Positions 8,144 to 50,554 of a DNA stretch of 64,000 bases are shown here, piece by piece. The stretch is from Salinispira sp. (GTDB taxonomy: Bacteria; Spirochaetota; Spirochaetia; DSM-27196; Salinispiraceae). The notes under the pieces are model-generated. The model saw only the letters and a program-made list of their open reading frames with translations, was not told the DNA's origin and did not search any database. Location of the stretch: contig CBDDDG010000010.1 of NCBI GenBank assembly GCA_965226555.1, forward strand, positions 96,001-160,000, written 5' to 3'. Both the position numbers and the translations under genes were made by a program. Numbering within the stretch: position 1 is the stretch's first letter; each line of letters opens with the position of its first letter.

Positions 8144-8168
8144 GTGGTGCACTTATGGTTGAATTCGC
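8144..8168 (+). repeat. Dispersed ~22-bp motif GCRCTTATGGTTGAATT(CGC)
   Basis: Also at 31177-31197, 50698-50723 and inverted at 58801-58827. Confidence 0.75.
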
Positions 8169-8279
8169 AAGGAATTTATCGGCGTGGTAGATTCGATGTT
8201 CGGAATTGTTATAGACTTTGACACGCTAATGAACCAGTTACAAAGAACAAAAGAACCGAGAGGTAAGGAGGTAGCAAAA

Positions 8280-8624
8280 ATGTTCAGAATGAATGCGGAA
8301 ACATTCAAAGCGCGCATTGCGGAGATGGGACGACAGGAAGGACTTCAGACAGGACGACAGGAAGGATTGCAGACAGGACGACAGGAAGGATTGCAGACAG
8401 GACGACAGGAAGGATTGCAAGAAGGACTTCAGACAGGTCGGCAGGAAGGATTGCAGACAGGACTTCAGACAGGTCGGCAGGAAGGCCGCGCTGAGGGGCA
8501 TATTGAGGAGCGGAGAAAAAACGCCCGCAGTATGTTTTCCAAAGGATTTTCAGCCCATGACATTCAGGATGTTACCGGGCTGAGCGATGAGGAAATGCGG
8601 ACAGTGCGGAACGGATCGCATTAA
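8280..8624 (+). CDS. Stand-alone Rpn C-terminal module (RpnS-like small protein) from a 5'-truncated Rpn gene (homology starts at 8169)
   Basis: Near-identical to 15915-16346; SD AAGGAGGT before ATG 8280; GRQEGLQT repeats; ends TGLSDEEMRTVRNGSH. Confidence 0.75.
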   Translation: MFRMNAETFKARIAEMGRQEGLQTGRQEGLQTGRQEGLQTGRQEGLQEGLQTGRQEGLQTGLQTGRQEGRAEGHIEERRKNARSMFSKGFSAHDIQDVTGLSDEEMRTVRNGSH

Positions 8625-8702
8625 TTGACGTTGCTCGGCCTGCTCGCCCAAGCAACCGGCTCGCCCATGCGTCTGGATCAGGTCAATATCTCAAAATAAT
8701 AA

Positions 8703-8760
8703 AACAAAGTTTTGCTACTGAAAATTGCCCAAGGCACAACTTTATCAATGCGAAAGTTTA
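8703..8760. repeat. Dispersed palindromic repeat, degenerate long form, upstream of murA
   Basis: aaagttttgctactgaaaattg...cacaactttatcaatgcgaaagttt. Confidence 0.6.
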
Positions 8761-8799
8761 GATATTGAAAAAAAACGAAGAACTGGATACTATCCGCCT

Positions 8800-10089
8800 A
8801 TGAGTCAATACATTATACGCGGCGGAAAAAAACTCCATGGGAATGTGAAAATCAGCGGAAACAAAAATGCCGCTCTTCCCTGTATCGCAGCCGCGATTCT
8901 CAGCGATGAACCAGTTATCCTGCGGAATGTTCCCCACATTGAAGATGTATTCGTTCTTACGGAAATACTCAGAAGCCTTGGCGGAAGGGTTCACAGCGAA
9001 CCTTCCCGCGGGGAAATGCATATTCACATGCCTACAATCAAAAAACACGAGATTGACCGAAATCTCTCTGAAAAAATCCGGGCCTCCGTACTCCTTGCTG
9101 GCCCCATGCTGGCCCGCAGCGGGAAAATTATTCTCCCTCCGCCCGGAGGCGACATTATCGGCCGCCGCCGGCTCGATTCACACTTCCAAGCCCTCCGCGG
9201 ACTTGGCGCAGATGTAACAATAGACGAAAATGATGAGCACTTCATATTTCAAACCGATGATCTCCATGGCGAAGATATTTTTCTGGATGAGGCATCGGTA
9301 ACCGCAACAGAAAATGCCATTATGGCAGCAGCTCTGGCAGAAGGAAGCACCATACTGAGAAATGCGGCATCCGAACCCCATGTGCAGGACCTCTGTACCA
9401 TGATCAATAGTATGGGGGGAGATATCAGCGGAATCGGAAGTAACATTCTCACTATCAGAGGTGTGAAAAAACTTCACGGAACAGAATTTACTATTGGTTC
9501 CGATTATATGGAGATCGGCTCCTACATTGGTCTTGCGGCAGTAACCGGAAGCGCGCTGCGTATCAATAACATTGAACCCCGGCATTTACGCATGATATCG
9601 ATGGGTTTTGCAAAGCTCGGCATTGGCTGGGAAACCGATCATAGCAGTATGTATGTACCCGACACGCAACTCATGAAGGTACAGCCCGACTCCGGCGGCG
9701 CAGTCTCAAAAATTGATGACGCCCCCTGGCCGGGATTTCCGCCAGATCTGCTCAGTATCATCCTTACCGTTGCCACTCAGGTCAGCGGAACTATTCTGAT
9801 CCATGAAAAAATGTATGAAAGCCGAATGTTCTTTGTGGATAAGCTCATACATATGGGCGCTCACATTGTTCTCTGCGACCCGCATCGGGCTGTTGTGAGC
9901 GGAGCGAGTCCGCTGCAGGGAACCCGCTTAGTCAGTCCCGATGTACGCGCGGGGATGGCCCTTGTTATTGCAGCCTTAGCGGCACGGGGAGAAAGCCGTA
10001 TCCAGAACATCTATCAAATTGAACGGGGCTATGAGAACCCCGTCGAAAAGCTCAGAAACATTGGAGCAGATATTCAGAAAACGGATTGA
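8800..10089 (+). CDS. murA: UDP-N-acetylglucosamine 1-carboxyvinyltransferase
   Basis: ISGNKNAALP, RASVL, PGGDIIGRR, SVTATEN, AASEPHV, WPGFPPDL, DVRAG, IERGYE. Confidence 0.97.
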   Translation: MSQYIIRGGKKLHGNVKISGNKNAALPCIAAAILSDEPVILRNVPHIEDVFVLTEILRSLGGRVHSEPSRGEMHIHMPTIKKHEIDRNLSEKIRASVLLAGPMLARSGKIILPPPGGDIIGRRRLDSHFQALRGLGADVTIDENDEHFIFQTDDLHGEDIFLDEASVTATENAIMAAALAEGSTILRNAASEPHVQDLCTMINSMGGDISGIGSNILTIRGVKKLHGTEFTIGSDYMEIGSYIGLAAVTGSALRINNIEPRHLRMISMGFAKLGIGWETDHSSMYVPDTQLMKVQPDSGGAVSKIDDAPWPGFPPDLLSIILTVATQVSGTILIHEKMYESRMFFVDKLIHMGAHIVLCDPHRAVVSGASPLQGTRLVSPDVRAGMALVIAALAARGESRIQNIYQIERGYENPVEKLRNIGADIQKTD

Positions 10090-10139
10090 CCAGCAAAAAA
10101 TCTGAAAAAAAACCGGCGCCGATTACTGCATTAGCAGCA

Positions 10140-13649: not shown

Positions 13650-13774
13650 TCTGATTATTTTTGACAATTCTGATATCTGATATTTCTGAATTATTAGTAA
13701 GGCGTCAGATGTATAAGCCAACCGAACATAAGCTCAGTTGCCACATATCATCTGACACAGATTAAAGAGTGACT

Positions 13775-14662: not shown

Positions 14663-14682
14663 AATACCTCCAAAAATTATTT

Positions 14683-14840
14683 ATGAAACTTTTGCATACA
14701 TAACGTTTTGCCAGAGGCAAAATTTTCAGCAGCAAACGTTTCCGATCGGGAATGCTTTCTATATATTTGCATTCTCAATTTTATAGAAAGTTTTGCTCCT
14801 GGAAATTGCGCACGCACAATTTTCCAATGCAAAACTTTAC
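14683..14840. repeat. Composite palindromic repeat upstream of rbsB
   Basis: Short palindromes, then a gaatgct..gcattc module, then the long palindrome gaaagttttgctcctggaaattgcgcacgcacaattttccaatgcaaaacttt. Confidence 0.8.
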
Positions 14841-14899: not shown

Positions 14900-14926
14900 T
14901 GGGATATAAACCTTTGGACTGACCCC
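14900..14926 (+). mobile_element. Orphan IS481-like terminal repeat
   Basis: tgggatataaacctttggactgacccc is 26/27 identical to the reverse complement of 31125-31151. Confidence 0.75.
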
Positions 14927-15115
14927 TTCCCGTCCACTAACCCGCATTCCCGAGCCCTCCCCTCCCGTAGCCCTGAAAAAAATTCACACATTTTGCAAAA
15001 TTCTTTCCACATACACAGTCAAAAATGACAGTTTACCCGTCACAGATTATAGAGGGGAGAATTCACCATGGGACCATGTCGCCATGGGAGCTCCCCTATT
15101 CAGAAAAAAACGTTC

Positions 15116-15242
15116 AGAAACTTTTGCATTGGAAAATTGTGCTTGCACAATTTCCAGTAGCAAAAGTTTCAGATTCGGAATGCTTTGTATGTGCTTAGCA
15201 TTCTTCTATTTTATAGAAAGTTTTGCATTTTGCAAAACTTTC
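15116..15242. repeat. Composite palindromic repeat (most complete copy) upstream of the Rpn gene
   Basis: gaaacttttgcattggaaaattgtgcttgcacaatttccagtagcaaaagtttc + gaatgct..agcattc + gaaagttttgcattttgcaaaactttc. Confidence 0.88.
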
Positions 15243-15257: not shown

Positions 15258-16346
15258 ATGATCGATTTCAAAGAAAAACCCGCCCCCGTTCCCTACGACC
15301 AAGGATACCGCTCCCTGCTGTTCCAACCCGCAATAATGCTCCAATTTCTTCAACGCTTTGTCGGAGGCGCATGGACGAAAAAATTGCGAACCGAGGACAT
15401 AACCATTGAAAACGGTACCTTTTTCATTGACCATGCGAAAACACGGATGGCCGACATTGTCTGCAAAATCAGGAGTCGGGATCACACGGGAGATGTTGCT
15501 ATCTATGTGCTCCTTGAGCATCAGTCTGGAGTGGACAAAGACATGCCCTTCCGCATGTTGGAGTACACAAACCTTCTCTGCCGGAACATTCGCAGCTCCG
15601 GCACAATTCCCGATGACTGCGAGGTGGTATTTCTGCCCATTGTGTTCTATAATGGTACGCGAAAATGGAAGGTGCCCGGGAACGTCAGAGAGCAACGGAA
15701 TCGGGAATTCCCGCAGTATCTTGCACCTTTTCCCTACGATCTTATTAGCGAGAACGATTATTCTGCGGAGCAGCTGCAGCAGCGGGGAAGAATGTTTGCG
15801 GCTGTTATGTACCTTGATCTGTACTCGAAAAATCTACTGAATACGGATTGGGACATTCAGAAGGTGGAGAAAGCGATAGCAGAAATGCTGAATGAGGAAT
15901 CGCTGGAGCTGATAAAGGAATTTATTGGCGTGGTAGATTCGATGTTTGGAATTGTTATAGACTTTGACACGCTAATGAACCAGTTAGAAAGAACAAAAGA
16001 ACCGAGAGGTAAGGAGGTAGCGAAAATGTTCAGAATGAATGCGGAAACATTCAAAGCGCGCATTGCGGAGATGGGTCGGCAGGAAGGACTGCAGACAGGT
16101 CGGCAGGAAGGACTTCAGACAGGATTGCAAACAGGTCGGCAGGAAGGACTTCAGACAGGATTGCAAACAGGTCGACAGGAAGGTCGGCAGGAAGGACTAC
16201 GGACAGGCCGCGCTGAGGGGCATATTGAGGAGCGGAGAAAAAACGCCCGCAGTATGTTTTTGGAAGGCTTGTCGACAGAGACTGTTCAGAGAATTACCGG
16301 GCTGAGCGATGAGGAAATGCGGACATTGCGGAACGGATCGCATTAA
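15258..16346 (+). CDS. Rpn family recombination-promoting nuclease/putative transposase (YhgA-like PD-(D/E)XK)
   Basis: YDQGYRSL, ADIV, YVLLEHQS, MPFRMLEY, LPIVFYNG..W, C-terminal GRQEGLQT repeats; SD AGGAGG. Confidence 0.92.
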   Translation: MIDFKEKPAPVPYDQGYRSLLFQPAIMLQFLQRFVGGAWTKKLRTEDITIENGTFFIDHAKTRMADIVCKIRSRDHTGDVAIYVLLEHQSGVDKDMPFRMLEYTNLLCRNIRSSGTIPDDCEVVFLPIVFYNGTRKWKVPGNVREQRNREFPQYLAPFPYDLISENDYSAEQLQQRGRMFAAVMYLDLYSKNLLNTDWDIQKVEKAIAEMLNEESLELIKEFIGVVDSMFGIVIDFDTLMNQLERTKEPRGKEVAKMFRMNAETFKARIAEMGRQEGLQTGRQEGLQTGLQTGRQEGLQTGLQTGRQEGRQEGLRTGRAEGHIEERRKNARSMFLEGLSTETVQRITGLSDEEMRTLRNGSH

Positions 16347-21261: not shown

Positions 21262-21362
21262 ATAGAAACTTTTGCATTTTGCAAAAGTTTCACATTTTGA
21301 ATGACTCTATGTGCTGAGCATTCTCGCATTTTGTAGAAAGTTTTGCATTCTGCAAAACTTTG
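21262..21362. repeat. Composite palindromic repeat between the divergent pepT and ADH genes
   Basis: gaaacttttgcattttgcaaaagtttc + gaatga..agcattc + gaaagttttgcattctgcaaaacttt. Confidence 0.85.
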
Positions 21363-21379
21363 TATTACTCTATTCTCAT

Positions 21380-29535: not shown

Positions 29536-29917
29536 GCGTGTGCGGCGTCTGCTGAGATCTGCCATTTCCAATTCTGACGAAAAACCCGGCATCGACTATC
29601 AGCAGGCCTGGGATGAACTCAACGAATTCCTCGAAACCGACAAAACGCAGAAGCCCCGACCGAGCGACCGCAGCCGACAATCAGCGCAATCCGCGCAGCG
29701 CCTCGCCGAAGACTATGCAAATCTGGAACTGTCTCCCTATGCCGACATTGCCGCAATCAGAAAGAACTATATGCGGCTGTTGGCGGCATATCATCCCGAC
29801 AAGTACATTCGGAATCCAGACAAACAGATCATTGCCAACGAAATAACCGTTCGGCTGAATAAATCGTACCAGCGCATTATGGAAGATCGGCAAAAAAAGT
29901 GGGATATTAAGGTTTGA
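29519..29917 (+). CDS. J-domain (DnaJ-like) protein; the last five codons come from the IS481 end
   Basis: YANLEL, IRKNYMRL, YHPDK, LNKSY. Confidence 0.85.
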   Translation: MASIFKRVRRLLRSAISNSDEKPGIDYQQAWDELNEFLETDKTQKPRPSDRSRQSAQSAQRLAEDYANLELSPYADIAAIRKNYMRLLAAYHPDKYIRNPDKQIIANEITVRLNKSYQRIMEDRQKKWDIKV

Positions 29918-31395: not shown

Positions 31396-32871
31396 ATGAA
31401 AATTAAATTTATGGGGGGGGGGGTAACCCTTTTCATTCTCTGCTCAATGTTTATTGCATTGATATCGGGATGTCCAATGCCGGAACCCGAGCCAACCGCG
31501 CCGGGTACAATGGCTGCCCCAGACCTTAAAGCGGGGGATGAGGAACTCATTGCTACATGGACTGCGCCGGAAGATAACGGCGGCAGCCCCATTACCGGAT
31601 ATGAGCTGCAATATCGCACAGGCAGCGGAGAATGGACAGGAATGAGCTCTGGCATCGGCACAAATACAAGCCACAGCATTACAGGACTGACAAACGGCGC
31701 TGCCTACGAAGTACAGGTGCGCGCCGTCAATGCAATCGGCGCTGGCGACTGGTCGGAATCTGCCGCTGAAACCCCTGTCACCGTTCCTGACGCGCCGGCT
31801 GCCCCAACCCTTTATGCGGGCACTGGGCGGATCGTTGCGAGATGGACTGCGCCGGAAGATACCGGAGGGAGCGCCATTACCGGGTACGAATTGCAGTATC
31901 TTACAGGCGGCGGAGCATGGACGGAAATTAGCGAAGGCATTACTGGCACAGACCACTGCATTACCGGTCTGACAAACGGCATTGTCTACGGAGTACAGGC
32001 GCGCGCCGTCAATGTAATCGGCAAAGGACCTTGGTCTGCACCCGTAGCGGGAACGCCACTATTTTCTCCGAAACAAACTCCTTCGGGTACGGAAAAATCT
32101 ATAAACCTTCCGGTTGCTCAGAATGCTTTTACTAATGCCATTATTGCCAATGAGAACCTCAACGTTTTGTTGACTCCGGTGAAATCGGGTACCACTCTCA
32201 CGGTTGAAGAAGGAGACCTTAAAGTAACCCCCACAACTGCGCCCGCAGGAGTCACCATTCCGACAGTTGATGCGAATACTGGAATTGTTACGGTTACCGC
32301 AAGTACAACAGCCGGAACATATGTAGTATATGGCGAAACAGAAACTGGAAACATAGTCTTTGCAGAGTATTTCTCTGTTACTGAGAGTCCAACAACTAAC
32401 GCTGAACTGAAAGCAGCGGTAACTTCGGGAATATCAAACTGGGGCAATACTGCCGATTTCAACTACATTATTACCACTGCGGTAACGATTATGGCCCAAA
32501 TATTCAATGAAGCAAGCGAATTCAATGGTGATATCTCACTCTGGGATACCAGCTCGGTAACGAGTATGTTGGGGATGTTCAATGATGCAAGCGCATTCAA
32601 TGGCGATATCTCACTCTGGGATACTGGCGCGGTAACGGATATGAGCTGGATGTTCTATAAAGCAAGCGTATTTAATAGCAATATCTCGAAATGGGATGTT
32701 GGCGCGGTAACGATTATGAGCAATATGTTCAGGGATGCAAGCGCATTCAATCAGAATCTTGAGGAATGGAAGGATCATTGGACGCTTACTAATGGCAAAT
32801 ATACCGGAACGGCCACCCTGATGTTTAATTCTTCCGGCGTGACAACGCCTCCAACATGGTATAATAATTAG
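31396..32871 (+). CDS. Surface lipoprotein: 2 FN3 domains + 4 DUF285/BspA-like repeats; G11 tract in the signal peptide
   Basis: Lipobox LISGC; WTAPEDNGGSPITGYELQY..YEVQVRAVN; FNGDISLWDTxxVTxM repeats. Confidence 0.9.
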   Translation: MKIKFMGGGVTLFILCSMFIALISGCPMPEPEPTAPGTMAAPDLKAGDEELIATWTAPEDNGGSPITGYELQYRTGSGEWTGMSSGIGTNTSHSITGLTNGAAYEVQVRAVNAIGAGDWSESAAETPVTVPDAPAAPTLYAGTGRIVARWTAPEDTGGSAITGYELQYLTGGGAWTEISEGITGTDHCITGLTNGIVYGVQARAVNVIGKGPWSAPVAGTPLFSPKQTPSGTEKSINLPVAQNAFTNAIIANENLNVLLTPVKSGTTLTVEEGDLKVTPTTAPAGVTIPTVDANTGIVTVTASTTAGTYVVYGETETGNIVFAEYFSVTESPTTNAELKAAVTSGISNWGNTADFNYIITTAVTIMAQIFNEASEFNGDISLWDTSSVTSMLGMFNDASAFNGDISLWDTGAVTDMSWMFYKASVFNSNISKWDVGAVTIMSNMFRDASAFNQNLEEWKDHWTLTNGKYTGTATLMFNSSGVTTPPTWYNN

Positions 32872-38489: not shown

Positions 38490-38846
38490 TTATTCCCGGA
38501 CATTAGCCCGGATGTCGGGAATATCTGCGGGGTTTTCCTGTTTTTCTGCTTCTGCTTCTGAATTTCCCGGCCCCCGGTAAAAACGGCGATACGCGCCCAC
38601 GAGCTCAGGTATACTGCCGCGCTCCGGCACCGGGTCATCACCCATGGCAAACCAACTCCAGCAACGAAGTATTCTTCCCAATCCAAGAACAATACCCCTG
38701 AGTATGCCATGTGTCAACATTGCCCTCCGGCAATACTCGGAACAGCTCGGATAATAACGGCAGCGCCGGGGAAACAGCGGAGAGATGATCCGCTGATACA
38801 GGATGATCGGAAAGGTTAATATACGGCGGAAAATCGGAAATGCCAT
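38490..38846 (-). CDS. yidD: Membrane protein insertion efficiency factor
   Basis: YQRIISP, CRYYPSCSEY, RILRC, GDDPVP. Confidence 0.92.
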   Translation of the reverse strand: MAFPIFRRILTFPIILYQRIISPLFPRRCRYYPSCSEYCRRAMLTHGILRGIVLGLGRILRCWSWFAMGDDPVPERGSIPELVGAYRRFYRGPGNSEAEAEKQENPADIPDIRANVRE

Positions 38847-40423
38847 TATTTTTCCTTTAAATGAAATATCATTTCTGAATATGCCGATGTATCTTTTTCT
38901 GTTCTGTTTAAAACTGGTCTTTTATATGTATGTACAATTTTCATTCCTCCCTTTTCTGCGATAGTCGGATACATATTGTATTTATCGTTTGCCACCAGAA
39001 AAATATCGTAGTCTTCCTGCAAGTAGCGCTTTGAGTTAAGTAAAACATGCGCGACACCCTCAATATATGAATTGCGGGCTTCTTTACCCTGCCCTTTATA
39101 CAGGGGGCCGACTTCCAATGTATCGTTGCGTTCAAAACCAAATAAATCATATGCATACGCGTGTTGTTCATGATAATTAATTAAACCAACATACGGAGGG
39201 CTTGAAAAAATTCCTTTAATTTTTTGTTGCGTAACTAATTTTGCAAAATGAGGATTCCGCGCTTCCAGATCTGCCAAAATATGAATGTTTCGCGCATCTC
39301 CCTGTAAACAGGTTTGAAAAGTATTCGAACGGAGCTTATCAAATTCATACAGCCGTTTTACCGTGTCCTGACTATATCTTTCCCACCATGAAAATATTGA
39401 AAACAATGGTTTGCATATTTTTCCATGTTTTCTACAATAGTATGTTTGAGTGACCGGCTCTTTCAGAGTAGCGAGATCTGCGTGTGTTGTTGCTCTGCAG
39501 GACCTCATTGTCCGGCTTAATATTATTGTAAGTATTCGTTTTGTAATGGGATTTTCAACTCTCTTAAGGTGCTCGAAAGTAAAATCTATTTCATCTCTTA
39601 CTGATGTGAGATACCATTTTTCAAGAAAATTGCCCGCTTTGTTTTGTGTGAGTGTAAGATTATATTTTTCCCGTAGTTTATTGAAAGTTTGAACAAATAC
39701 TTTTTCCTGCTTCTGAGCATACTCTTTTTCGTTTATGTTCTTTTGTTGTACTTTAATTTTATAATCGGGCGAAGGAAAATAGTTTTTATTGAAAACCTGC
39801 AATTCCGCAACTAACTCATTTTCAAATTGAGCGTTGTTATTATGCGAAATAAAATCTTTTAAAGCGGCGGTAATATTTTTTATTTCGTTTTTGAGATCAT
39901 CAAAATCGACCTTACCTACCTTAACATTTGCAATAAGTACATTAAATGCTGAAATATCAATGCCTATTGCGTGTATTCCCAATTCATTAGCCTGAACCAT
40001 GGTTGTCCCGCTCCCTGAGAATGGGTCTAAAACAATATCGCCCTTTTTGAAAGAGACTTTCTCTTTAAAGTTGTCGGTATGATTGTCTAAAAAATATTCG
40101 ACAAGTTGCGGTATAAACTTCCCCTTGTAGGGGTGCAGTCTATGAATGTGCTTTGTTGTATCTCTTTCTTTAACATGATCGAATGATAATGCCCAATTTA
40201 AATCGTCCCCGAGTTTTTCTCTCCAATGAGCCTCTCTCCGCCCGTTAAAACTTTTGTAATACGCTATGAGGTCATCTTTATTAACAGAGGTACTCCCGTT
40301 TTTGCCATATTTTGTAACTTTCCCGTATTGAATGAGATACGAGATATTCGAAGTGGTAACTTCCTTCTTCAAATAGCGGCTCGCCCATACACTGGCTTCG
40401 CCTATTGTCAATAATTCAGTCAT
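38846..40423 (-). CDS. Site-specific DNA methyltransferase (likely N4-cytosine) with an N-terminal HTH-like segment
   Basis: HPYKGKFIPQL, VLDPFSGSGTT, FSSPPY; AT-rich relative to its flanks. Confidence 0.9.
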   Translation of the reverse strand: MTELLTIGEASVWASRYLKKEVTTSNISYLIQYGKVTKYGKNGSTSVNKDDLIAYYKSFNGRREAHWREKLGDDLNWALSFDHVKERDTTKHIHRLHPYKGKFIPQLVEYFLDNHTDNFKEKVSFKKGDIVLDPFSGSGTTMVQANELGIHAIGIDISAFNVLIANVKVGKVDFDDLKNEIKNITAALKDFISHNNNAQFENELVAELQVFNKNYFPSPDYKIKVQQKNINEKEYAQKQEKVFVQTFNKLREKYNLTLTQNKAGNFLEKWYLTSVRDEIDFTFEHLKRVENPITKRILTIILSRTMRSCRATTHADLATLKEPVTQTYYCRKHGKICKPLFSIFSWWERYSQDTVKRLYEFDKLRSNTFQTCLQGDARNIHILADLEARNPHFAKLVTQQKIKGIFSSPPYVGLINYHEQHAYAYDLFGFERNDTLEVGPLYKGQGKEARNSYIEGVAHVLLNSKRYLQEDYDIFLVANDKYNMYPTIAEKGGMKIVHTYKRPVLNRTEKDTSAYSEMIFHLKEK

Positions 40424-40645: not shown

Positions 40646-40747
40646 CTACGCTTTACCGTTTTTGTTTTTCTGAAATGCTCGAATGTCATCTCCGCTGAGC
40701 TCAGTGTACTTATGAATAAAGTCTATCAACAGACCCTCCCTGAGCAT
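40646..40747 (-). pseudogene. Extra Rpn-type C-terminal module (33 aa)
   Basis: MLREGLLIDFIHKYTELSGDDIRAFQKNKNGKA parallels MFSEGLSTEAVQRITGLSDEEMR. Confidence 0.6.
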
Positions 40748-40823: not shown

Positions 40824-41885
40824 TTAATGCGATCCGTTCCGCACTGTCCGCATTTCCTCATCGCTCAGCCCGGTAATCCTCTGAACAGCCTCGGTCGACA
40901 ACCCTTCCGAAAACATACTGCGGGCCGTTTCTCGAATGCCGTCTTCACGACCTTTCAGAATACCTTTCTCAATGCCTTCAGCCCGGCCCTTTGTGATACC
41001 CTGCTCAAGACCTTCAACCCTGCCTTTCAGAATACCCTTCTCCATTCCTTTCAGAATACCTTTCTCCATTCCTTTCAGAATACCTTTCTCCATGCCTTCC
41101 CTGACGAAGGCGTTGGTAATATTATATGTCCGCATACTGTTTTCTCCTTCAGGATATAGTTCCCTGTTAATTTTCTCAAACTGCTCATACAGTCCCAGAT
41201 CTTTCAGATAGCCTAGCACACTCTCTGCCAGATCAGCAAAGTCTTGTGATGACAGACCGTTTAGGAGCTGCGCAATTTCTTTCAGCCCCTCAGCATCCAT
41301 TTTATTATCTCGCATTATATACCACAACGCAGTTGATGTATATCGTTTTCCATCGAAACGCCATGCCAACTGTTTCTTGTCCATTCTCCTCAGATCACGC
41401 ACAATGTACGACACTTTTACCCTGACATCCACCGTGCCTTCGATCATAGTTTCGGAAGCAGCATTTCCATGTGAACTGTAAAATGTGAGTGGGAGGTTCC
41501 ATTCCTTTTTTCCGTGGTAGAACAGAAGTATATAGATAGCATCATTTTCATTGTACACATTGCTGTTTCTGAGGGCATGCTGATAGTTATCGATTTGAGT
41601 GAGAGCATGTTTGTGCTGGTAGCTTTTATGCTCAGTAATAAACAGAGCTTTTCGGTCGGGGTCTGACAGGAAGGGGGCACTGACAACGAGATCGCAGTGA
41701 AGGTTCTTTTTTCCTGCAATGTAGCTGGGTGTTTCAATGCGGATTTTGTCCAGGTCCAGCTTGGTAAGCGTTGTATCCTCACAGAACAGCCGCAGTAGAT
41801 CGGGAATCAGCTGGGGGGTTCTGTAGTAGGCGATCTTGAAGGCTATGTCGTGGATGTGGCCTGTGCTGTGGGATGATTTTTTCAT
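40824..41885 (-). CDS. Second, divergent Rpn family nuclease/putative transposase
   Basis: HIHDIAFK, HCDLV, FITEHKSY, LLFYHG..W, GMEKGILK repeats, same TGLSDEEMRTVRNGSH end; SD AGGAG. Confidence 0.9.
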   Translation of the reverse strand: MKKSSHSTGHIHDIAFKIAYYRTPQLIPDLLRLFCEDTTLTKLDLDKIRIETPSYIAGKKNLHCDLVVSAPFLSDPDRKALFITEHKSYQHKHALTQIDNYQHALRNSNVYNENDAIYILLFYHGKKEWNLPLTFYSSHGNAASETMIEGTVDVRVKVSYIVRDLRRMDKKQLAWRFDGKRYTSTALWYIMRDNKMDAEGLKEIAQLLNGLSSQDFADLAESVLGYLKDLGLYEQFEKINRELYPEGENSMRTYNITNAFVREGMEKGILKGMEKGILKGMEKGILKGRVEGLEQGITKGRAEGIEKGILKGREDGIRETARSMFSEGLSTEAVQRITGLSDEEMRTVRNGSH

Positions 41886-42438: not shown

Positions 42439-42449
42439 TCATTGTGAAT

Positions 42450-43058
42450 TCAAGCGGATATTGGGATGCATAAATATCGAAAAGGACAGTCCGCATTTTC
42501 ATGCGGTAGATCTTCCCACTTCATTGTGTATGTGTCATGCAAATTGATGGGGGTTTCACGGTTTTTCATTGTGCCGGAACTGGCATTTTTATCCCAACAA
42601 AGACGTCCTTCCATGTTCTTTCCGTCATGAATTCTAAACTGTTCGTCAACGGTAGATTTGTCCTTTGATTGTTCCCAATACAAATGATCATTGGTAAGAA
42701 ATACAGCATAGCCGTGTTTTATGTGCCCCGTCTGTATCCATTTCTCCAGCCGGGAAATATCCTTCAAAAAATCGTATCGGCAACAATCTTGCGCGCCATG
42801 GTTTTTCAAATTAAATACTTCGCCATCTTTCGCTACATGCTTGTGTGTTTTCGTTTTGTATTTCAATTCCACGCCAATTTTCGTGCCGTGAGTAATACAT
42901 ACAATATCACAATACTCGGATTCCCCCAACGGGTATTCAAGTCGTATTTCGCAGCCATGCTTGTGCATGTGCCACGCCAAATGATGTTGGAAATCTGCCT
43001 CGGAATGGAAAATGCAACGGCTTTGCAAAGCTTCGTGCAGAATGTTTTGGAAATTCAT
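42450..43058 (-). CDS. Hypothetical PD-(D/E)XK-type nuclease
   Basis: FHSEADFQ, RLEYP, CDIV, VELKYKT, KDISRLE; TTGACA promoter upstream. Confidence 0.7.
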   Translation of the reverse strand: MNFQNILHEALQSRCIFHSEADFQHHLAWHMHKHGCEIRLEYPLGESEYCDIVCITHGTKIGVELKYKTKTHKHVAKDGEVFNLKNHGAQDCCRYDFLKDISRLEKWIQTGHIKHGYAVFLTNDHLYWEQSKDKSTVDEQFRIHDGKNMEGRLCWDKNASSGTMKNRETPINLHDTYTMKWEDLPHENADCPFRYLCIPISA

Positions 43059-43170
43059 AATTTTCACCTTTGAGAAGCTCTGGAAACACGGGTAATAGCG
43101 TTTTTTCAAGCTTCACGGTACAATAATATCACAAAAAAATATATATGTCAAACACTTTTGTGTGAAATAT

Positions 43171-43252: not shown

Positions 43253-43882
43253 CTACTGCCCTTCAAGTTCCATAAACCAAAAATCACCTTTGTGAACCCA
43301 GTTGAATTCATATGATTTTTTGAGTCGGATGTCGCATATGTTATTACCAATCTCTGTTTGTGGCAGATGTATATCACGTACTTTGGTGCCATGTGAAATA
43401 TCAAAATTTTTAAAAATTTCTCCCGTTTTTTTCTTCGGATGCGCAAGCGTTTCCTGATCGGTCATAACCAAGGCAAGCCCTTCATCGAACCCTGCGCCAC
43501 AATAGTCTTCGAGACGACTCAGATCCACATAAACACCTTTCATGAAATTATTTTTTGCCCCAGCCTTTTCTCGAAAAAATTTCATTTCAACGGCAATTTT
43601 GTGACGGCCCCGGGAGTTTTCACCCTCTAATACCAAATCGATTTCACAGGGTTTGTTCGGCAGTTTGACATATGTTTCCAACTCAATTTTTGCGGATTCA
43701 TCTTCACGAAAACAGATAAGAGGAACCACCTCTTGCAAAATACACGCGTAGTGAAGTTGCATTGATGCTTCCTTGTTAAGGGACACCTGTCCTTCCCCCG
43801 TTTTCTCCATGAAAATTTTCCATGCAAACGATATACTATTTCTGAGCCGTTTTTCAAAGCTCCCTGTTAGTAAATTATCCAT
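43253..43882 (-). CDS. Hypothetical PD-(D/E)XK-type nuclease, related to its neighbour
   Basis: NKEASMQ, ELET, EIDLV, AVEMKF, DLSRLE; SD AGGAG. Confidence 0.7.
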   Translation of the reverse strand: MDNLLTGSFEKRLRNSISFAWKIFMEKTGEGQVSLNKEASMQLHYACILQEVVPLICFREDESAKIELETYVKLPNKPCEIDLVLEGENSRGRHKIAVEMKFFREKAGAKNNFMKGVYVDLSRLEDYCGAGFDEGLALVMTDQETLAHPKKKTGEIFKNFDISHGTKVRDIHLPQTEIGNNICDIRLKKSYEFNWVHKGDFWFMELEGQ

Positions 43883-44078
43883 ATTACTACTCCTAATAAA
43901 TAGTTACCATGAGTTATAAAACTCATGTATTGTTGATTATGCAACATCGCATGCTGCTGCCTGCATTTCCATAAAAAATTTTATGCCGTATGTTCGGCCC
44001 CTCCTCGTATAAAAAATTTCCTGCTATATCGAAAATCACAAAAATCTTGCCAATGGACAGTTTGTGAGACGATGCAGG

Positions 44079-47000
44079 TTAATACCATGACGGAATCAGA
44101 CTACCTGTTACGCCGGAATTTGTAAACATCTTAGATTTGTATCCGGTATATTTACCAGCGCTATTGAGCGTCAAATGCTCCTTCCATTCTTCAAGATCGC
44201 CATTGAAGGCGGTTGCCTCATAGAACATCCGGTTCATGATCCATACCGAGCTAACATCCCAGTCCGAAATATCGCCATTGAATGCGGTTGCGTAATAGAA
44301 CATCCCGTTCATTTCCGTTACCGAGCTAACATCCCAGCCCGAAATATCGCCATTGAATGCGTCTGCATTAGAGAACATCTCACGCATATTTGTTACCGAG
44401 CTAACATCCCAGCCCGAAATATCGCCATTGAATGCGGTTGCGTACCTGAACATCTCAATCATATACGTTACCGAGCTAACATCCCAGTCCGAGATATCGC
44501 CATTGAATGCGTCTGCGTTAGAGAACATCCCGACCATACTCGTTACCGAGCTAACATCCCAGTCCGAAATATCGCCATTGAAGGCGGTTGCAACCCAGAA
44601 CATCCAGACCATACTCGTTACCGAGCTAACATCCCAGTCCGAAATATCGCCATTGAAGGCGACTGCGTAATAGAACATCTGGTACATACTCGTTACCGAG
44701 CTAACATCCCAATCCGAGATATCGCCATTGAATGCGGTTGCGTTCCTGAACATTTCCGACATATCCGTTACAGTGCCAGTATCCCAGTCCGAAAGGTCGC
44801 CATTGAAGGCGCGTGCGCCACGGAACATAGAGCTCATATTCGTTACCGAGCTAACATCCCAGTCCGAAATATCGCCATTGAAGGCGTCTGCGTCATAGAA
44901 CATATAGGACATATCCGTTACCGCTCCAGTATCCCAGTCCGATAGATCGCCATTGAATGCGGTTGCATTAGAGAACATATGGCTCATATACGTTACCGAG
45001 CTAACATCCCAGTCCGATATATCGCCATTGAATGCTCGTGCGCCAGAGAACATATAGGACATATCCGTTACTGAGGTGGTAATAATGTAGTTGAGATCGG
45101 CAGTATCGCCCCAGGTTGTTATTCCCGCAGTTGCCGCTGTTTGCAGTTCAGCGTTAGTAGTAGGGCTCACGGTAACATAAAAATGTTTGGAAAACTGTTC
45201 AGTTCCCCCGCCGTCTTCGCCAGATACGAGGTATGTTCCAGCCGTTGTATGTGGGGTAACGGTAATAATTCCAGTACCCGCATTAACTGTCGGCGGGGTA
45301 ACCGTTGATGTCGGGGAAGTAACCGTAGTTAAAGAAACAGTCAAATTCTCAGTGGCAATACGGGTATCAATAGCAGCCGAAAGAATTGCGAGCACTGCCC
45401 TACCAGATGGAACCTGTGTCGCAAAAACCGGCAGCATTGCTGTGCTACTCCCCGACCATGCGCCTGCGCCCTGCGCGTTCACGGCGCGCACCTGCACTTC
45501 GTAGCTGTTGCCGTTTGTCAGTCCGGTAATGGTGTGGCTTGTGTTTGTGCCGATGCCGGAGCTAATAGGCGTCCATGCTCCGCCGCCTCTGCGATACTGC
45601 ACCTCATACCCGGTAATGTCCGTGCCGCCGTTGTCGGTCGGCGCGCTCCATGCCACGCCAAGTTCGGTGTCTCTGGCTGTGAGCGTTGGAGCTGCTGGCG
45701 CGTTGGGAGCAATGTTGGGGGTGGCGATGGCGGAGAGCGACCACGGGCTATTGCCCTGCGCGTTGACGGCGCGTACCTGCACTTCGTAGCTGTTGCCGTT
45801 TGTCAGGCCGGTAATGGTGTGGCTTGTGTTTGTGCCGGAGCTAATAGGCACCCATGCTCCGCTGCCTGTGCGGTATTGCAGCTCATAGCGAGTAATGTCC
45901 GTGCCGCCGTTGTCGGTCGGAGCGCTCCATGCAACAGTGAGCCGAGCGTTCCCCTCTGTAAGTGTTGGTGCTGCTGGCGCGTTGGGAGCAATGTTGGGGG
46001 TTGCTGTGGCGCTCCCCGACCATGCGCCTGCGCCCTGCGCGTTGACGGCGCGTACCTGTACTTTATAGCTATTGCCGTTTGTCAGTCCGGTAATGGTGTG
46101 GGTTGTGCGTGTGCTGGAGCTAATAAGCGTCCATGCTCCGCCGCCTCTGCGATACTGCAACTCATAGCGAGTAATGTCCGTGCCGCCGTTGTCGGTCGGC
46201 GCAGTCCATGCAACAGTGATCTGGGTGTTTCCAACGGTAAGTGTTGGTGCTGCTGGCGCGTTGGGAGCAATGTTGGGGGTTGCTGTGGCGCTCCCCGACC
46301 ACGGGCTATTGCCCTGCGCGTTGACGGCGCGTACCCGTACTTCGTAGCTGTTGCCGTTTGTCAGTCCGGTGATGGTGTGGCTTGTGCGTGTGCTGGAGCT
46401 AATAAGCGTCCATGCTCCGTTGCCTCTGCGATATTGCAACTCATAGCGAGTAATGTCCGTGCCGCCGTTGTCGGTCGGCGCAGTCCATGCTACGCCGAGC
46501 TGGGTGTTTCCAACGATGAGTGTTGGAGCTGCAGGCGCTCTGGGAGCAATGTCGGGGGTTGCTGTGGCGCTCCCCGACCATGGGCCCGCGCCTTTCGCGT
46601 TGACGGCGCGTACCCGTACTTCGTAGCTATTGCCGTTTGTTAGGCCTGTGATGGTGTGGGTTGTGCTTGTGCCGGAGTCAATTATTTTCCTCTGCCAACT
46701 CCTACCGGTTTGGTAATACTGCAGCTCATAGCGAGTAATGTCCGTGCCGCCGTTGTCGGTCGGAGCGCTCCATGCAACAGTGAGCCGAGCGTTCCCCTCT
46801 GTAAGTGTTGGTGCTGCTGGCGCGTTGGGAGCAATGTTGGGGGTTGCTGTGCTACTCCTCGACCATGGGCTATTGCCCTGATCGTTGACGGCGCTCACCT
46901 GTACTTCGTAGCTGTTGCCGTTTGTCAGTCCGGTAATGGTGTGGCTTGTGCGTGTGCCGATGCCGGAGCTAATAAGCGTCCATGCCCCGCCGCCTGTGCG

Positions 47001-48689
47001 GTACTGCAGCTCATACCGGGTAATGGCGCTGCCTCCAGTGTCGGTCGGAGCGCTCCATGCTACAGTGAGTTGGGTGTTTCCAACGGCGAGCGTGGGCGCT
47101 GTCGGCGCCATGGGAACGGCAACAGGGGTTGCCGATGCAGAGGGTGACCATTCGCCCGTGCCCTGTGCGTTGACGGCGCGTACCTGTACTTTATAGCTAT
47201 TGCCGTTTGTCAGTCCGGTAATGGTGTGGCTGGTGTTTGTGCCGATGCCGGAGCTAATAAGCGTCCATGCTCCACTGTTTCCTTTGAGATACTGCAGCTC
47301 ATAGCGGGTAATGGCGCTGCCGCCGGTGTTCGGCGCAGTCCATGTTACGCCGAGCTGGGTGTTTCCGGCGGTGAGCGTGGGCGAATCGGGAGTGCTGGGA
47401 ATGGTAGCGGGGGTTGCGGAGGCGCTCCCCGACCATGGGCCACTGCCCTGATCGTTCACGGCGCGCACTTGTACTTCGTAGCTGTTGCCGTTTGTCAGTC
47501 CCGTAATGGTGTGGCTGGTGCTTGTGCCGATGCCGGAGACAATTAAGGTCCATGCTCTGTCGCCTGCGCGATATTGCAGCTCATACCCGGTAATGGCAGT
47601 GCTTCCGTTGTCGGCGGGAGTGCTCCATGCCGCGGTGAGCTGGGTGTTTCCAACGGTGAGTGTTGGAACTGCAGGGGCGTTGGGAGTAACGTCGGGAGTT
47701 GCTGTAGTACTCCCCGACCATGGGCTATTACCCTGCGCGTTCACGGCGCGCACCTGTACTTCGTAGCTATTGCCGTTTGTCAGTCCCATAATGGTGTGGC
47801 TTGTAGTAGTAATTTCGGAATCGGTAGTTACATCCAGCCACATTCCTTCCGGGTCGGCAACTTCGCGATATTGCAGTTCATACCGAAGAATTTCGCTTCC
47901 GCCGGTGTTCGGCGCGTTCCATGTCGCGGTGAGCCGGTTGTTTCCGTGGGTGAGCGTTGGCGCATTGGGAGCGGAGGGTATGGTAACCGGAATTGCCGTG
48001 AGAATTTCCGACGGGTTACCATTGCCCTTCGCATTAACAGCATATACCCGCACAGCGTACTCGGTGCCGTTTGTCAGTTCCATAATGGTGTAGGTAAAAA
48101 TGCCGGCATCGCCAGCAGCATCGCCATTGGCAATTACAGCGGCAGATTCCCACTCGCCTGCATGAGCTTCGCGATATTGCAGCTCATACCCGGTAATTTC
48201 GCTGCCGCCGTCATCGGTTGGCGCAGCCCATGTCGCGGTAATGTGTGCGTCATCCGCTTCAAGCGTAAACGCAGTCGGCGCCATAGGAACGGCAACAGGG
48301 GTTGCGGCGGCGCTCTCCGACCATGCGCCATTGCCTTTCGCATTCACGGCGCGCACCTGTACTGTGTACTCGGTGCCGTTTGTTAGTTCTGTAATGGTGT
48401 AGGTAAAAATGCCGGCATCGCCAGCAGCATCGCCATTGGCAATTACAGCGGCAGATTCCCACTCGCCTGCATCGGCTTCGCGATATTGCAGCTCATACCC
48501 GGTAATTTCACTGCCGCCGTCATCGGTTGGCGCAGCCCATGCCGCAATGAGTTGCCCGTTGCCCTCTTCAAGGGTTGGGACAAGCATTTCACCCGGTGCG
48601 GTGATATCATCTACCAGATCAGATCCCGGTAGCGGGCATCCGGCAAGCAGCGCGATAAACATTGCGCAGAATATGACATGAAACTTCAT
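44079..48689 (-). CDS. Large surface lipoprotein: 11 FN3 domains + 12 DUF285/BspA-like 25-aa repeats
   Basis: MKFHVIFCAMFIALLAGC lipobox; repeated WxAPTDNGGxxITxYELQY..YEVQVRAVN; 75-bp repeats AFNGDISDWDVSSVTxMxxMF. Confidence 0.9.
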   Translation of the reverse strand: MKFHVIFCAMFIALLAGCPLPGSDLVDDITAPGEMLVPTLEEGNGQLIAAWAAPTDDGGSEITGYELQYREADAGEWESAAVIANGDAAGDAGIFTYTITELTNGTEYTVQVRAVNAKGNGAWSESAAATPVAVPMAPTAFTLEADDAHITATWAAPTDDGGSEITGYELQYREAHAGEWESAAVIANGDAAGDAGIFTYTIMELTNGTEYAVRVYAVNAKGNGNPSEILTAIPVTIPSAPNAPTLTHGNNRLTATWNAPNTGGSEILRYELQYREVADPEGMWLDVTTDSEITTTSHTIMGLTNGNSYEVQVRAVNAQGNSPWSGSTTATPDVTPNAPAVPTLTVGNTQLTAAWSTPADNGSTAITGYELQYRAGDRAWTLIVSGIGTSTSHTITGLTNGNSYEVQVRAVNDQGSGPWSGSASATPATIPSTPDSPTLTAGNTQLGVTWTAPNTGGSAITRYELQYLKGNSGAWTLISSGIGTNTSHTITGLTNGNSYKVQVRAVNAQGTGEWSPSASATPVAVPMAPTAPTLAVGNTQLTVAWSAPTDTGGSAITRYELQYRTGGGAWTLISSGIGTRTSHTITGLTNGNSYEVQVSAVNDQGNSPWSRSSTATPNIAPNAPAAPTLTEGNARLTVAWSAPTDNGGTDITRYELQYYQTGRSWQRKIIDSGTSTTHTITGLTNGNSYEVRVRAVNAKGAGPWSGSATATPDIAPRAPAAPTLIVGNTQLGVAWTAPTDNGGTDITRYELQYRRGNGAWTLISSSTRTSHTITGLTNGNSYEVRVRAVNAQGNSPWSGSATATPNIAPNAPAAPTLTVGNTQITVAWTAPTDNGGTDITRYELQYRRGGGAWTLISSSTRTTHTITGLTNGNSYKVQVRAVNAQGAGAWSGSATATPNIAPNAPAAPTLTEGNARLTVAWSAPTDNGGTDITRYELQYRTGSGAWVPISSGTNTSHTITGLTNGNSYEVQVRAVNAQGNSPWSLSAIATPNIAPNAPAAPTLTARDTELGVAWSAPTDNGGTDITGYEVQYRRGGGAWTPISSGIGTNTSHTITGLTNGNSYEVQVRAVNAQGAGAWSGSSTAMLPVFATQVPSGRAVLAILSAAIDTRIATENLTVSLTTVTSPTSTVTPPTVNAGTGIITVTPHTTAGTYLVSGEDGGGTEQFSKHFYVTVSPTTNAELQTAATAGITTWGDTADLNYIITTSVTDMSYMFSGARAFNGDISDWDVSSVTYMSHMFSNATAFNGDLSDWDTGAVTDMSYMFYDADAFNGDISDWDVSSVTNMSSMFRGARAFNGDLSDWDTGTVTDMSEMFRNATAFNGDISDWDVSSVTSMYQMFYYAVAFNGDISDWDVSSVTSMVWMFWVATAFNGDISDWDVSSVTSMVGMFSNADAFNGDISDWDVSSVTYMIEMFRYATAFNGDISGWDVSSVTNMREMFSNADAFNGDISGWDVSSVTEMNGMFYYATAFNGDISDWDVSSVWIMNRMFYEATAFNGDLEEWKEHLTLNSAGKYTGYKSKMFTNSGVTGSLIPSWY

Positions 48690-48692
48690 TCT

Positions 48693-48899
48693 CAACAAAA
48701 GCATTTTGAATAGCAACAGACCGGGGTAGGCTTCCCTGCCAACCGCGCTGCTTCCTCGGGTATCGTGTTCTGTAACAATATCCTCAATGGGCTTCCAGTC
48801 GATAATCTGGTCAATTTTCCGATAGAAGGTGTTTTTCCGTGTACGTCTTTCCATACTGTCTGCGACAAATGACATAGTGAGCTCCTGAGATTTGATCAT
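48693..48899 (-). mobile_element. IS5-family transposase N-terminal remnant fused in frame to the lipoprotein gene
   Basis: MSFVAD..RRTRKNTFYRKIDQIIDWKPI..GREAYPGLLLFKMLLL matches the IS5 N-terminal pattern; no DDE core follows. Confidence 0.8.
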
Positions 48900-49052
48900 G
48901 GCGAGGATCATAGCATATATATGAGGACGATTACAGCCAGAAAGCGAAAAATCGAAAGAAAAATTCAAAAACGTTCATATGGGATGTTGATACTCCGGAT
49001 ACATGAACGGTACTACCGATGAGACTGTTGCCGTGCAACAATCTCTTTTTAT

Positions 49053-49079
49053 GGAAAATTTGCATTTTGTCAAACTTTC
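49053..49079. repeat. Short palindromic repeat, preceded by a variant palindrome at 49020-49045
   Basis: ggaaaatttgcattttgtcaaactttc; tgagactgttgccgtgcaacaatctc. Confidence 0.65.
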
Positions 49080-49094
49080 AGCAATACTGTTTAT

Positions 49095-50036
49095 ATGCTA
49101 AGTGCGAATTCAAACATCTTACTTGTGCTGCTCGCGATATTTTCAGCAAGCTGCGCAACCGATTGGGACATTCCCGATACCGCAAAATATCCGGCAGAAA
49201 TTGATATTGTCAGTCTGAACATTCATTATCTGGTTCCCGAACGGGACAGCACTAACTGGGATGCGCGAAAATATGCGGTAACAGAAATGCTGAATACCGT
49301 GAATGCCGACATCGTTATTTTTCAGGAAATGGAAACATTCCACCTGCATGGAAGCGACCCTCACACTACCTCTCATGAAAACATTCAGCTGGACTGGATC
49401 ATGCAGATGGTCCCCAATTATACGGCAGGGGCAATTGGGAATGCCGATAAATTCCCCATAACACAACCCATACTGTACCGCAGCGATCGTTTTACCCTCA
49501 TCCGGCAGGGCTTCTTCTACTATTCCCCCACTCCCGATGTCATTTACAGCCGCCCATGGAATGGAGGGTATCCGTCCTTCAGTACCTGGATGCATCTGCG
49601 CGATACACAAACAGAAGAAGAATTTATTGTTCTGAACAGTCATCTGGATGCCTTCAACGGTAAGAATCGGAGCGATACTATTGAGCTCATCATAAAACGG
49701 CTGCCGGAAATATCCCAAGGACTGCCCGTAATTGCCGGAGGCGACTATAACATGCTGACAACCGATCCCATCCTCGCTGAACTGACATCAATCGGCCTGA
49801 AATACATCCCCATGCAGGGAAGTAGTTTCCATTTCGGACGGGGTTTACATCTCTACCCCTCAATTGATCATTTCTACGTATCCCCCGAATGGGAAGTAAA
49901 AGATGGGGGCGTCATGCAGAAGAAATGGCCCAATGAAGAGGGAATGCCCGAGCGCCGAATTACAGCCCGAGGAAGCTGGAACCCCGACTGGCCCTCGGAT
50001 CACCATCCCGTTTTTGCCCGCCTTCTTCTTCAGTAA
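49095..50036 (+). CDS. Endonuclease/exonuclease/phosphatase (EEP) family lipoprotein
   Basis: Lipobox FSASC; SLNI, DIVIFQE, NSHLD, GDYN, IDHF, PSDHHPV. Confidence 0.9.
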   Translation: MLSANSNILLVLLAIFSASCATDWDIPDTAKYPAEIDIVSLNIHYLVPERDSTNWDARKYAVTEMLNTVNADIVIFQEMETFHLHGSDPHTTSHENIQLDWIMQMVPNYTAGAIGNADKFPITQPILYRSDRFTLIRQGFFYYSPTPDVIYSRPWNGGYPSFSTWMHLRDTQTEEEFIVLNSHLDAFNGKNRSDTIELIIKRLPEISQGLPVIAGGDYNMLTTDPILAELTSIGLKYIPMQGSSFHFGRGLHLYPSIDHFYVSPEWEVKDGGVMQKKWPNEEGMPERRITARGSWNPDWPSDHHPVFARLLLQ

Positions 50037-50122
50037 AAAAATTTCTCATTAGATCATGCGCTGCGGGCAATACGGCAGTTCGAACGAGCGCAGCACCAAC
50101 CCGCAATAATGCTCCAATTTCT

Positions 50123-50554
50123 TCAACGCTTTGTCGGAGGATCGGCGACCAAACACATCCATTCCGCTTCGGCAGCAGTCTCATCGCCAACCAGAGCGAC
50201 ACCGCGTTGCCTGATCATACGCGAAGATATGCGGGTATTCTGAATTTCAAACCGCACCTTTTCGTTGGGTCGTACCTGACGGCGAAATTTTACTTTATCA
50301 ATTGTCGCCAGAAAAAACAGTTTGTCATCCGGCAGTTTTCCTGCCTGCCGCACACCGGCGCCTCCGCACTGCGCCATGGTCTCAACCAGAATGACACCAG
50401 GAACAACCGGATATTTGGGGAAATGTCCCTTGAAAAACGCTTCTTCGGAGGTGTATATTCTCGTACCGACAATCTGCTCATCGCTTACATCAACAAGCTC
50501 ATCAACAAAAAGAAAGGGTTCCCTATGCGGTAATAACTCTTTTATATTCTTCAT
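50123..50554 (-). CDS. fabZ: 3-hydroxyacyl-ACP dehydratase
   Basis: LLPHREPFLFVD, FFKGHFP..PVVPGVILVETMAQ, KFRRQVRP. Confidence 0.96.
   Translation of the reverse strand: MKNIKELLPHREPFLFVDELVDVSDEQIVGTRIYTSEEAFFKGHFPKYPVVPGVILVETMAQCGGAGVRQAGKLPDDKLFFLATIDKVKFRRQVRPNEKVRFEIQNTRISSRMIRQRGVALVGDETAAEAEWMCLVADPPTKR

Follow-up and report, generated by a model that had tools for sequence, protein, structure and literature searches.

The closest described relatives of the genes treated here are the Rpn/YhgA-like gene-within-gene systems (PF04754, COG5464) of Zhong et al. 2023, in which the gene for a long protein with a nuclease motif, RpnL, contains a second gene, RpnS, that begins at an internal Shine-Dalgarno sequence and ATG. 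These systems have variable 4-residue repeats in the first RpnS helix, a C-terminal bundle like that of structure 7TH0, free RpnS genes and tandem arrays, and they lack terminal repeats and target duplications. The highest copy count quoted for them is 26, with multiple copies ascribed to tandem duplication (PMC10327210/PMC10400941, PMC10400984), and Rpn genes are reported to tend to cluster with defence genes, which is not a defining trait. In their discussion of the systems, Zhong et al. and the commentary by Koonin leave open what determines the specificity of RpnS for RpnL, what the variation in the repeats is for, and a possible role of Rpn proteins in duplicating their own genes (PMC10327210, PMC10400984). 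Here, we describe the rpn genes of a Salinispira-like spirochaete (2.98 Mb in 26 contigs; the assembly is 93.5% complete with 6.67% contamination), beginning with a window, the 64,000-nucleotide stretch C10:96001-160000, in which an earlier note had seen a modular Rpn toxin/antitoxin-like system dispersed over four loci. The genes share the properties listed above, of which free RpnS genes, variable repeats and tandem arrays had been known before.

The family differs from the systems of Zhong et al. in having approximately 170 modules and 76 open long genes against a highest quoted count of 26, in being mostly dispersed (85 of 118 clusters are single) where theirs is tandem, and in having surface-protein genes rather than defence genes as partners. 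Furthermore, whereas RpnS of E. coli is cognate-specific and clusters with its own RpnL, the tails here are common to nucleases that are 17-48% identical. We consider it fairly probable that these genes form a self-neutralised toxin-antitoxin family that was amplified with surface-protein genes and by local duplication, and that is continually reshuffled by ectopic recombination at two common flanks. In polymorphic toxin systems such as CDI and Rhs, with their orphan toxin-immunity cassettes, modular toxins are likewise swapped via recombination and leave fragments behind; unlike in those systems, no export signal or delivery part is evident here, the toxin is N-terminal, and the immunity protein lies in frame within the toxin gene. 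The nearest analogue of the rpn shuffling is the movement of target-recognition domains between restriction-modification genes of Helicobacter pylori, for which Furuta and Kobayashi 2012 describe a divergent domain moving between non-orthologous loci, recombination at conserved flanking DNA and incongruent module trees (PMC3467074). The mobile unit here differs from the one described there in being the whole nuclease with its antitoxin head, between an upstream segment and a tail, at more than 100 loci. A literature search, with most subscription journals outside its scope, returned no comparable Rpn expansion, tail sharing, cassette exchange or surface-protein linkage, and a term search of PMC12478362 found neither Rpn nor DUF285.

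All five Rpn pieces that the earlier note had located in the window were recovered at the same positions. Two of them are complete genes, whose nuclease parts are only 17% identical, although their last 99 nucleotides match at 93 positions:

15258..16346, plus strand: RpnL of subfamily A, 362 residues, with a PD-(D/E)XK-type nuclease, a tetrad-repeat helix and a C-terminal helical bundle (PF04754, E=1.1e-18).
16026..16346, plus strand: predicted RpnS-A, 106 residues, from an internal ATG with the Shine-Dalgarno sequence AAGGAGG at 16011-16017 (sequence, homolog conservation and structure alignment).
14978..15112, plus strand: upstream segment common to A, B and D genes, with a putative promoter core at 15021-15042 followed by an A-specific leader (103 core copies).
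40824..41885, minus strand: RpnL of subfamily B, 353 residues, with an EHKS-type active site (PF04754, E=1.2e-9, and alignment).
40824..41135, minus strand: predicted RpnS-B, 103 residues, from an internal ATG with the Shine-Dalgarno sequence GAAGGAG at 41150-41144.

The genome-wide collection of Rpn-like loci that the earlier note had called for reveals the window pieces to be a sample of a genome-wide expansion, the scale of which the note, with its four loci, had missed. An iterated profile search found 173 Rpn C-terminal modules in the 118 clusters, and this count is a lower bound because the C-terminal profile missed a sixth RpnS tail type. This tail is unrelated to the others; it occurs on B and D genes at C18:9183, C10:235662 and C12:139422, and also in a protein from another assembly. 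The rpn-coding DNA amounts to 163 kb, or 5.5% of the genome, and contig C10 by itself holds 42 modules. Of 82 long open reading frames (ORFs) with a C-terminal module, 79 could be typed to seven nuclease subfamilies (A 31, B 30, C 10, D 4, E 2, F 1, G 1), which on a nuclease tree with 132 outside homologs fall into about three long-branched groups, B+D, A+F+G and C+E; the tree carries a long-branch warning and leaves separate acquisitions of the subfamilies unsupported. Matches to PF04754 number 0-6 per genome in 30 relatives as compared with 70 scored here. Among 300 sampled genomes of the phylum, the top first-look count among the matches listed was 23 as compared with 161 here, figures that come from PF04754 alone, are not copy numbers, omit the 210 genomes without a match, and are affected by the loss of repeats from fragmented assemblies. 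As to the genome in general, 23% of its bases are repeated at least twice, and its insertion sequence (IS) elements include IS3- and IS481-like ones (NCBIfam) and, by our reading of the sequences, IS5-, IS30-, IS1182- and IS982-like ones. A second multicopy family, which combines a repeat-rich coiled coil with a PD-(D/E)XK-like C-terminus (C14:256988-257992 and at least eight other loci), has several copies joined to rpn fragments.

Each gene consists of the common upstream segment, a subfamily-specific nuclease, the internal Shine-Dalgarno sequence and ATG, an RpnS head that is some 14 residues long and specific to the subfamily, between 2 and 21 tetrad repeats, one of three types of last helix, one of six types of helix-turn-helix (HTH), and the tail. 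The earlier note had proposed that nuclease and terminal module are exchanged by recombination and that their trees might be compared, and this part of its claim is borne out. At A and B loci, the nuclease type is unrelated to HTH type (30:19 and 32:17, p=0.83) and to last-helix type (p=0.84), and helix and HTH types are unrelated to each other (p=0.71); the tail types are in linkage equilibrium with the A and B nucleases. Tail DNA is as similar from A to B (0.859) as within types (0.862), and four sets of identical 90-nucleotide tails each span A and B. Nuclease label and tail tree are incongruent: to place the A label on the tail tree takes 18 changes, of which well-supported branches force at least 10, although the tree has few columns and rough support. 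At the other end, the 103 copies of the upstream core are followed by A in 46 cases, B in 50, D in six and none of these in one, suggesting that the upstream segment, a putative promoter, could serve as the 5' anchor for cassette exchange. A single junction between an E-type scrap and this segment is present in 45 copies, followed by B in 24, A in 17 and D in three. Within the A and B nucleases themselves, 57-85% of informative site pairs violate the four-gamete test, and the nucleases are evidently under purifying selection, as judged from their codons (pN/pS of 0.18 for A, 0.28 for B and 0.37 for C). Proteins from other assemblies contain B with H1, H2, H5 and H6 tails and A with H2, and since these assemblies hold the same combinations, the shuffling is not the assembly collapse that the earlier note had named as the finding that would overturn it.

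Interchange is nevertheless not as free as that note had supposed for nuclease and linker. The RpnS head matches its own nuclease in 135 of 136 linked loci, the single mismatch being an adjacent locus, and the 5' repeats also travel with the nuclease, so that mobility is confined to the 3' repeats and the last helix, HTH and tail behind them; the constancy of the head may merely reflect a lack of homology at that place. Since one stretch of DNA encodes both RpnS and the end of RpnL, each swap alters toxin and antitoxin together, and this joint change creates no new toxin-immunity pairings in cis. The combinatorial toxin-immunity repertoire envisaged in the note is thus supported only in part, as regards shuffling; it brings neither new pairings in cis nor, as described below, an enrichment of defence genes.

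The Rpn identity of both window genes, as proposed in the note, is confirmed by PF04754 scores of 68 bits for RpnL-A and 38.5 bits for RpnL-B against a curated cut-off of 21; in TIGR01784, RpnL-A (51.7) falls just short of the cut-off of 52.1 and RpnL-B scores 37.9. Residues D14, D66 and E87 are invariant in an alignment of six subfamilies, RpnL-A conserves D14, D66, E87-H-Q89-S90 and R99, and the five catalytic residues (D11, D63, E82, Q84 and R94 in RpnA) are all present in 27-30 of 30 A copies by pattern count. A structure model of RpnL-A (predicted local distance difference test, pLDDT, 86.5) has a single long helix at residues 250-335, and its residues 311-356 have as top match among 48,161 chains the E. 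coli RpnA-S structure 7TH0, with a middling Z of 7.1 and a root mean square deviation (rmsd) of 1.4 Å over 46 residues at 28% identity. The nuclease part of the model aligns to NucS (Z 6.3, rmsd 2.9 Å, 101 residues), while a single-sequence model was poor (pLDDT 48), a PDB sequence search gave nothing meaningful, and Foldseek gave no match at E≤0.001, with weak PD-(D/E)XK nucleases such as Cap4 and MspJI at best. An internal antitoxin start, also predicted by the note, is indicated by a Shine-Dalgarno sequence and ATG at the RpnS head in five subfamilies and by internal M257, which is at least 90% conserved in 121 homologs; scanning for promoters turned up no convincing sigma-70 candidate for RpnS. 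The RpnS sequences are distinct in 148 of 151 cases, and their 2-21 tetrads differ in length by multiples of 4, with phase kept, in 104 of 104. Modelling also hints at an RpnL-RpnS complex, with a score of 0.52 against 0.00 for the best control, agreement between runs in at least 96% of contacts, and a partner pLDDT of at least 82. Of 157 solved pairs, 116 attained the mark applied to such predictions, as did 2 of 215 mismatched ones (at 0.60 or below, only 18 solved pairs and both mismatches), and scores in that lower range are more often wrong than right unless the pair is likely beforehand; resemblance to 7TH0 may contribute as well. The window genes show every Rpn feature that could be assessed at the level of sequence, and the family is predicted to consist of toxic DNA nuclease genes with a small antidote made from an internal start in the same gene.

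The state of the two frames was compared in 160 loci with an RpnS head. The long frame and RpnS were open and intact, respectively, in 76, broken and intact in 77, both broken in six, and open with a broken RpnS in one (74, 76, 6 and 4 before four rows were reclassified, three with an intact RpnS of the sixth tail type and one with its 5' part in pieces). RpnL is broken in 83 loci versus seven for RpnS, and among the 77 loci with an open long frame RpnS is not intact in one, a suggestive bias of the kind expected if the bare toxin were lethal. Among the disrupted genes are recurrent alleles with an inserted miniature inverted-repeat transposable element (MITE), at codon ~244 in A (nine loci) and codon ~245 in B (about 15), for example at C10:260589-261829 and C2:66752-68081. 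They split the gene just 5' of the RpnS ribosome-binding site to give a near-complete nuclease ORF and a separate RpnS gene, which is possibly a functional split form.

The smaller pieces in the window are better described as relics, truncated by an IS element or overwritten, than as dedicated genes:

8169..8624, plus strand: 3' portion of an A gene, starting at codon ~220 and including a complete RpnS ORF, 8280-8624 (114 residues, H2-type HTH).
8143..8166, no strand: end of the IS30-like element that truncated this A gene (matches the IS end; the same break at codon ~220 occurs with a whole IS at C2:71876-74027).
40646..40747, minus strand: relic of 33 residues, H5-type HTH plus tail, which immediately follows the B gene.
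50096..50140, plus strand: 45-bp scrap, an exact match to the A gene at 15323-15367 (codons ~23-37), overlapping the last codons of an opposite-strand fabZ-like ORF.

The ORF at 8280-8624 carries the SKGFSAHDIQDV variant and matches the RpnL-A gene in 80 of its last 99 nucleotides; the locus retains the internal ribosome-binding site, and the ORF is likely still a free antitoxin gene. The 33-residue module (40747-40646) is missing the first helix and has no Shine-Dalgarno sequence at usable spacing. Two genes in the window adjoin rpn relics, namely an AAA ATPase with DUF3696 (6040-7986, minus strand; NsnB/HEC-03B/PDC-M55A-like in PADLOC) and a type II methyltransferase (38846-40423, minus strand).

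A relationship that the earlier note had missed is that between rpn and a family of surface-protein genes, one of which lies near the B gene:

44079..48968, minus strand: FN3-DUF285 surface-protein gene, from the family that usually precedes rpn in this genome, but separated here from RpnL-B by two unrelated ORFs.

Directly behind a DUF285 gene lie 49 of the 118 rpn clusters, as compared with 6.4 at random, and 49 of 86 FN3-DUF285 genes have an rpn gene within 1.5 kb downstream, mostly via a conserved spacer. Among the 30 relatives, which have 0-14 Pfam matches, this family too is expanded here only. It comprises about 86-89 genes (44079-48968 and 31396-32871 in the window), 58 of 89 with a lipobox-like motif; 55-69% of each gene is in exact blocks common to others, at about nine donors/kb, which resembles an antigenic-variation repertoire. 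The genes are mosaic with or without a neighbouring rpn (9.1 versus 8.3 donors/kb, p=0.46). RecA, MutS and MutL are intact, and with MutS and MutL present, mismatch-repair loss is ruled out as the cause of the mosaicism. The two ORFs between the window gene and RpnL-B (42450-43109 and 43253-43882, minus strand) match nothing in Pfam, NCBIfam or PADLOC, and the first, by our reading of its VELKYK motif, looks like another PD-(D/E)XK nuclease. Defence genes are not enriched beside rpn: PADLOC matches at E≤1e-20 were found for 9 of 101 neighbours as compared with 21 of 125 distant genes (p=0.11), a trend in the opposite direction, in a comparison of all 101 neighbours with 125 of 550 controls across about 2 Mb of the genome. 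The genome is rich in other defence genes.

We propose that the copies exchanged nuclease cassettes and C-terminal ends, likely via recombination among scattered loci, and that since the in-frame antidote would change with the toxin at every swap, recombination would be harmless and copies could accumulate. For the most part, the family may have been carried along by the FN3-DUF285 genes as these expanded too, with local duplication contributing, in an IS-rich genome; addiction would retain RpnS while RpnL often decays, and older E-type copies were apparently overwritten by A, B and D cassettes. In this scheme, we infer the toxicity, the translation of RpnS and the selective reason for retention of the nuclease. 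Several observations weigh against a self-neutralised family carried along with surface-protein genes. The polarity counts are non-independent, with a few recurrent MITE alleles making up many of the broken copies, and the loci were found through the RpnS head; none of eight distinct MITE sites is in RpnS, which accounts for 19-25% of the target weight, a deficit that is not significant, and RpnS breakage does not depend significantly on the state of RpnL (Fisher p=0.12). Because the alleles recur and neither the distinct-site nor the Fisher test is significant, the polarity is only suggestive. In addition, B and D (34 of 79 long ORFs) have lysine at the position of E. coli RpnA Q84, and according to PMC5350276 the Q84K change in that protein removed all RpnA phenotypes; a natural EHKS form is found also in a relative, and the nuclease activity of B and D is uncertain. 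About half of the rpn clusters are away from any DUF285 gene, and the rpn-linked DUF285 genes share more with paralogs than the others do (0.69 versus 0.55, p=0.0006), a greater homogenisation that also fits an active role for rpn. Finally, passive hitchhiking does not readily explain purifying selection on about 60 near-identical nucleases, or why A and B seem to have taken the place of E.

In an alternative, the Rpn nuclease drives its own spread, in that RpnL released now and then would nick DNA and repair from a paralog would copy the cassette to new or older rpn sites, making rpn an end-less, homing-like selfish gene with reshuffling of the neighbouring surface lipoprotein genes as a by-product or through domestication. 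We regard this as unlikely. Overproduced Rpn proteins of E. coli are reported to promote RecA-independent recombination and to leave priming ends (PMC5350276), and this alternative would account for the purifying selection on the nuclease, for E-type genes being mostly 5' scraps that are followed in 44 of 53 cases by an A, B or D gene, for the homogenised rpn-linked DUF285 genes and for the expansion of both families in this genome only among the 30 relatives. DUF285 genes without a neighbouring rpn are, however, equally mosaic by donor density, the E-scrap junction is a single event that was copied later, deletion of the paralogs in E. coli is reported to have left basal recombination unchanged (PMC5350276), and 23% repeats with an intact RecA may suffice. 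A fuller version seems to us similarly unlikely. In it, ectopic recombination triggered by the nuclease would let new nuclease cassettes overwrite older ones, the in-frame antidote of such a gene drive would keep every recombinant alive, and the host would have harnessed the drive as a diversification engine through its coupling to some 50 of 86 FN3-DUF285 genes.

Quite improbable, in our judgement, is the reading closest to the earlier note, namely that the family serves as an adaptive arsenal against phages, with shuffling and changes in repeat number creating many insulated toxin-antitoxin specificities. It draws on the report that RpnP2 guards E. coli against T-even phages and that repeat number sets RpnS specificity (PMC10327210), and it agrees with the near-uniqueness of the RpnS sequences (148 of 151), with their phase-keeping range of tetrads and with a genome rich in other defence genes. 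The absence of PADLOC enrichment beside rpn speaks against it, as do the lack of any sign of diversifying selection in the nucleases (30-codon windows), the breakage of RpnL at about half of the loci, and tails that are homogenised, not diversified. Furthermore, for 56 of 60 intact A and B genes another locus supplies an RpnS that has the same head and is equally long, and activation would be damped should these cross-neutralise.

Two elements near the A gene bear on the question of whether rpn moves by transposition:

15117..15242, no strand: hairpin MITE directly 5' of the RpnL-A ribosome-binding site, with 5-bp flanks GTTCA/ATTCA (empty site in other copies).
14900..14927, plus strand: remnant like one end of the IS481-like element, without a matching 15-bp target duplication around the rpn gene.

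It is very improbable, and already largely refuted, that Rpn acts as a transposase, rides as cargo in a non-autonomous transposon bounded by IS481-like ends, or mobilises the hairpin MITEs. For 53 of 173 modules, the 700 bp downstream contain an IS481-like end that faces inward (eight have one that faces outward), and the rpn zones, with 9.8% of the genome, hold 183 of 495 hairpin loci. Among 588 IS481-like terminus pairs, however, a target duplication was seen only for 11 IS copies, without an rpn inside any of them, and the ends of rpn blocks are no more alike in sequence than shuffled pairs are, in a search whose positive control, the 15-bp duplications of the IS481-like element, was recovered; rpn as cargo between such ends is therefore ruled out. 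The element itself (29900-31151 in the window) is 1,252 bp long, with 17 full copies and 15-bp target duplications. The hairpin MITE family comprises about 495 loci of 25-140 bp, the smallest being 27-bp hairpins (15117-15242, 14684-14838 and 21280-21363 in the window), and 47 of its 248 distinct flank pairs show an exact target duplication of 5 bp, as compared with 2.2 in shuffles. Its termini match those of a 1,340-bp IS5-like element, for which seven of eight two-ended copies have perfect 5-bp duplications and which is likely the mobiliser; given these matching termini and duplications, Rpn is unnecessary for MITE movement and is ruled out in that role. No HUH/Y1 transposase was found in the genome, which is 93.5% complete.

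That the common ends and the copy number are an artefact of assembly or binning, for which one could point to the contamination, the repeats and the fact that no contig in the examined read sets spans a whole locus, is extremely improbable in view of the distinct RpnS sequences, the 42 modules on contig C10 alone, the B and A tail combinations in other assemblies, several swapped blocks that lie within ~60-100 bp, a summed contig depth over rpn genes of ~80x that of the flanks in read sets X1/X2, possibly the source sample (a figure that is not a copy number), and an rpn depth that is also raised in X4, a different study.

For the Rpn family, the genome constitutes a natural combinatorial library of about 150 distinct RpnS, with fixed heads, 2-21 repeats, six interchangeable HTH types and seven nuclease backbones, and this library predicts that specificity is a matter of the head and repeat length rather than of the HTH. 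The genome also shows that a predicted toxin-antitoxin gene can attain an abundance like that of IS elements, 5.5% of a genome, without transposon ends, and the tie of its spread to a surface-protein family points to roles beyond phage defence.

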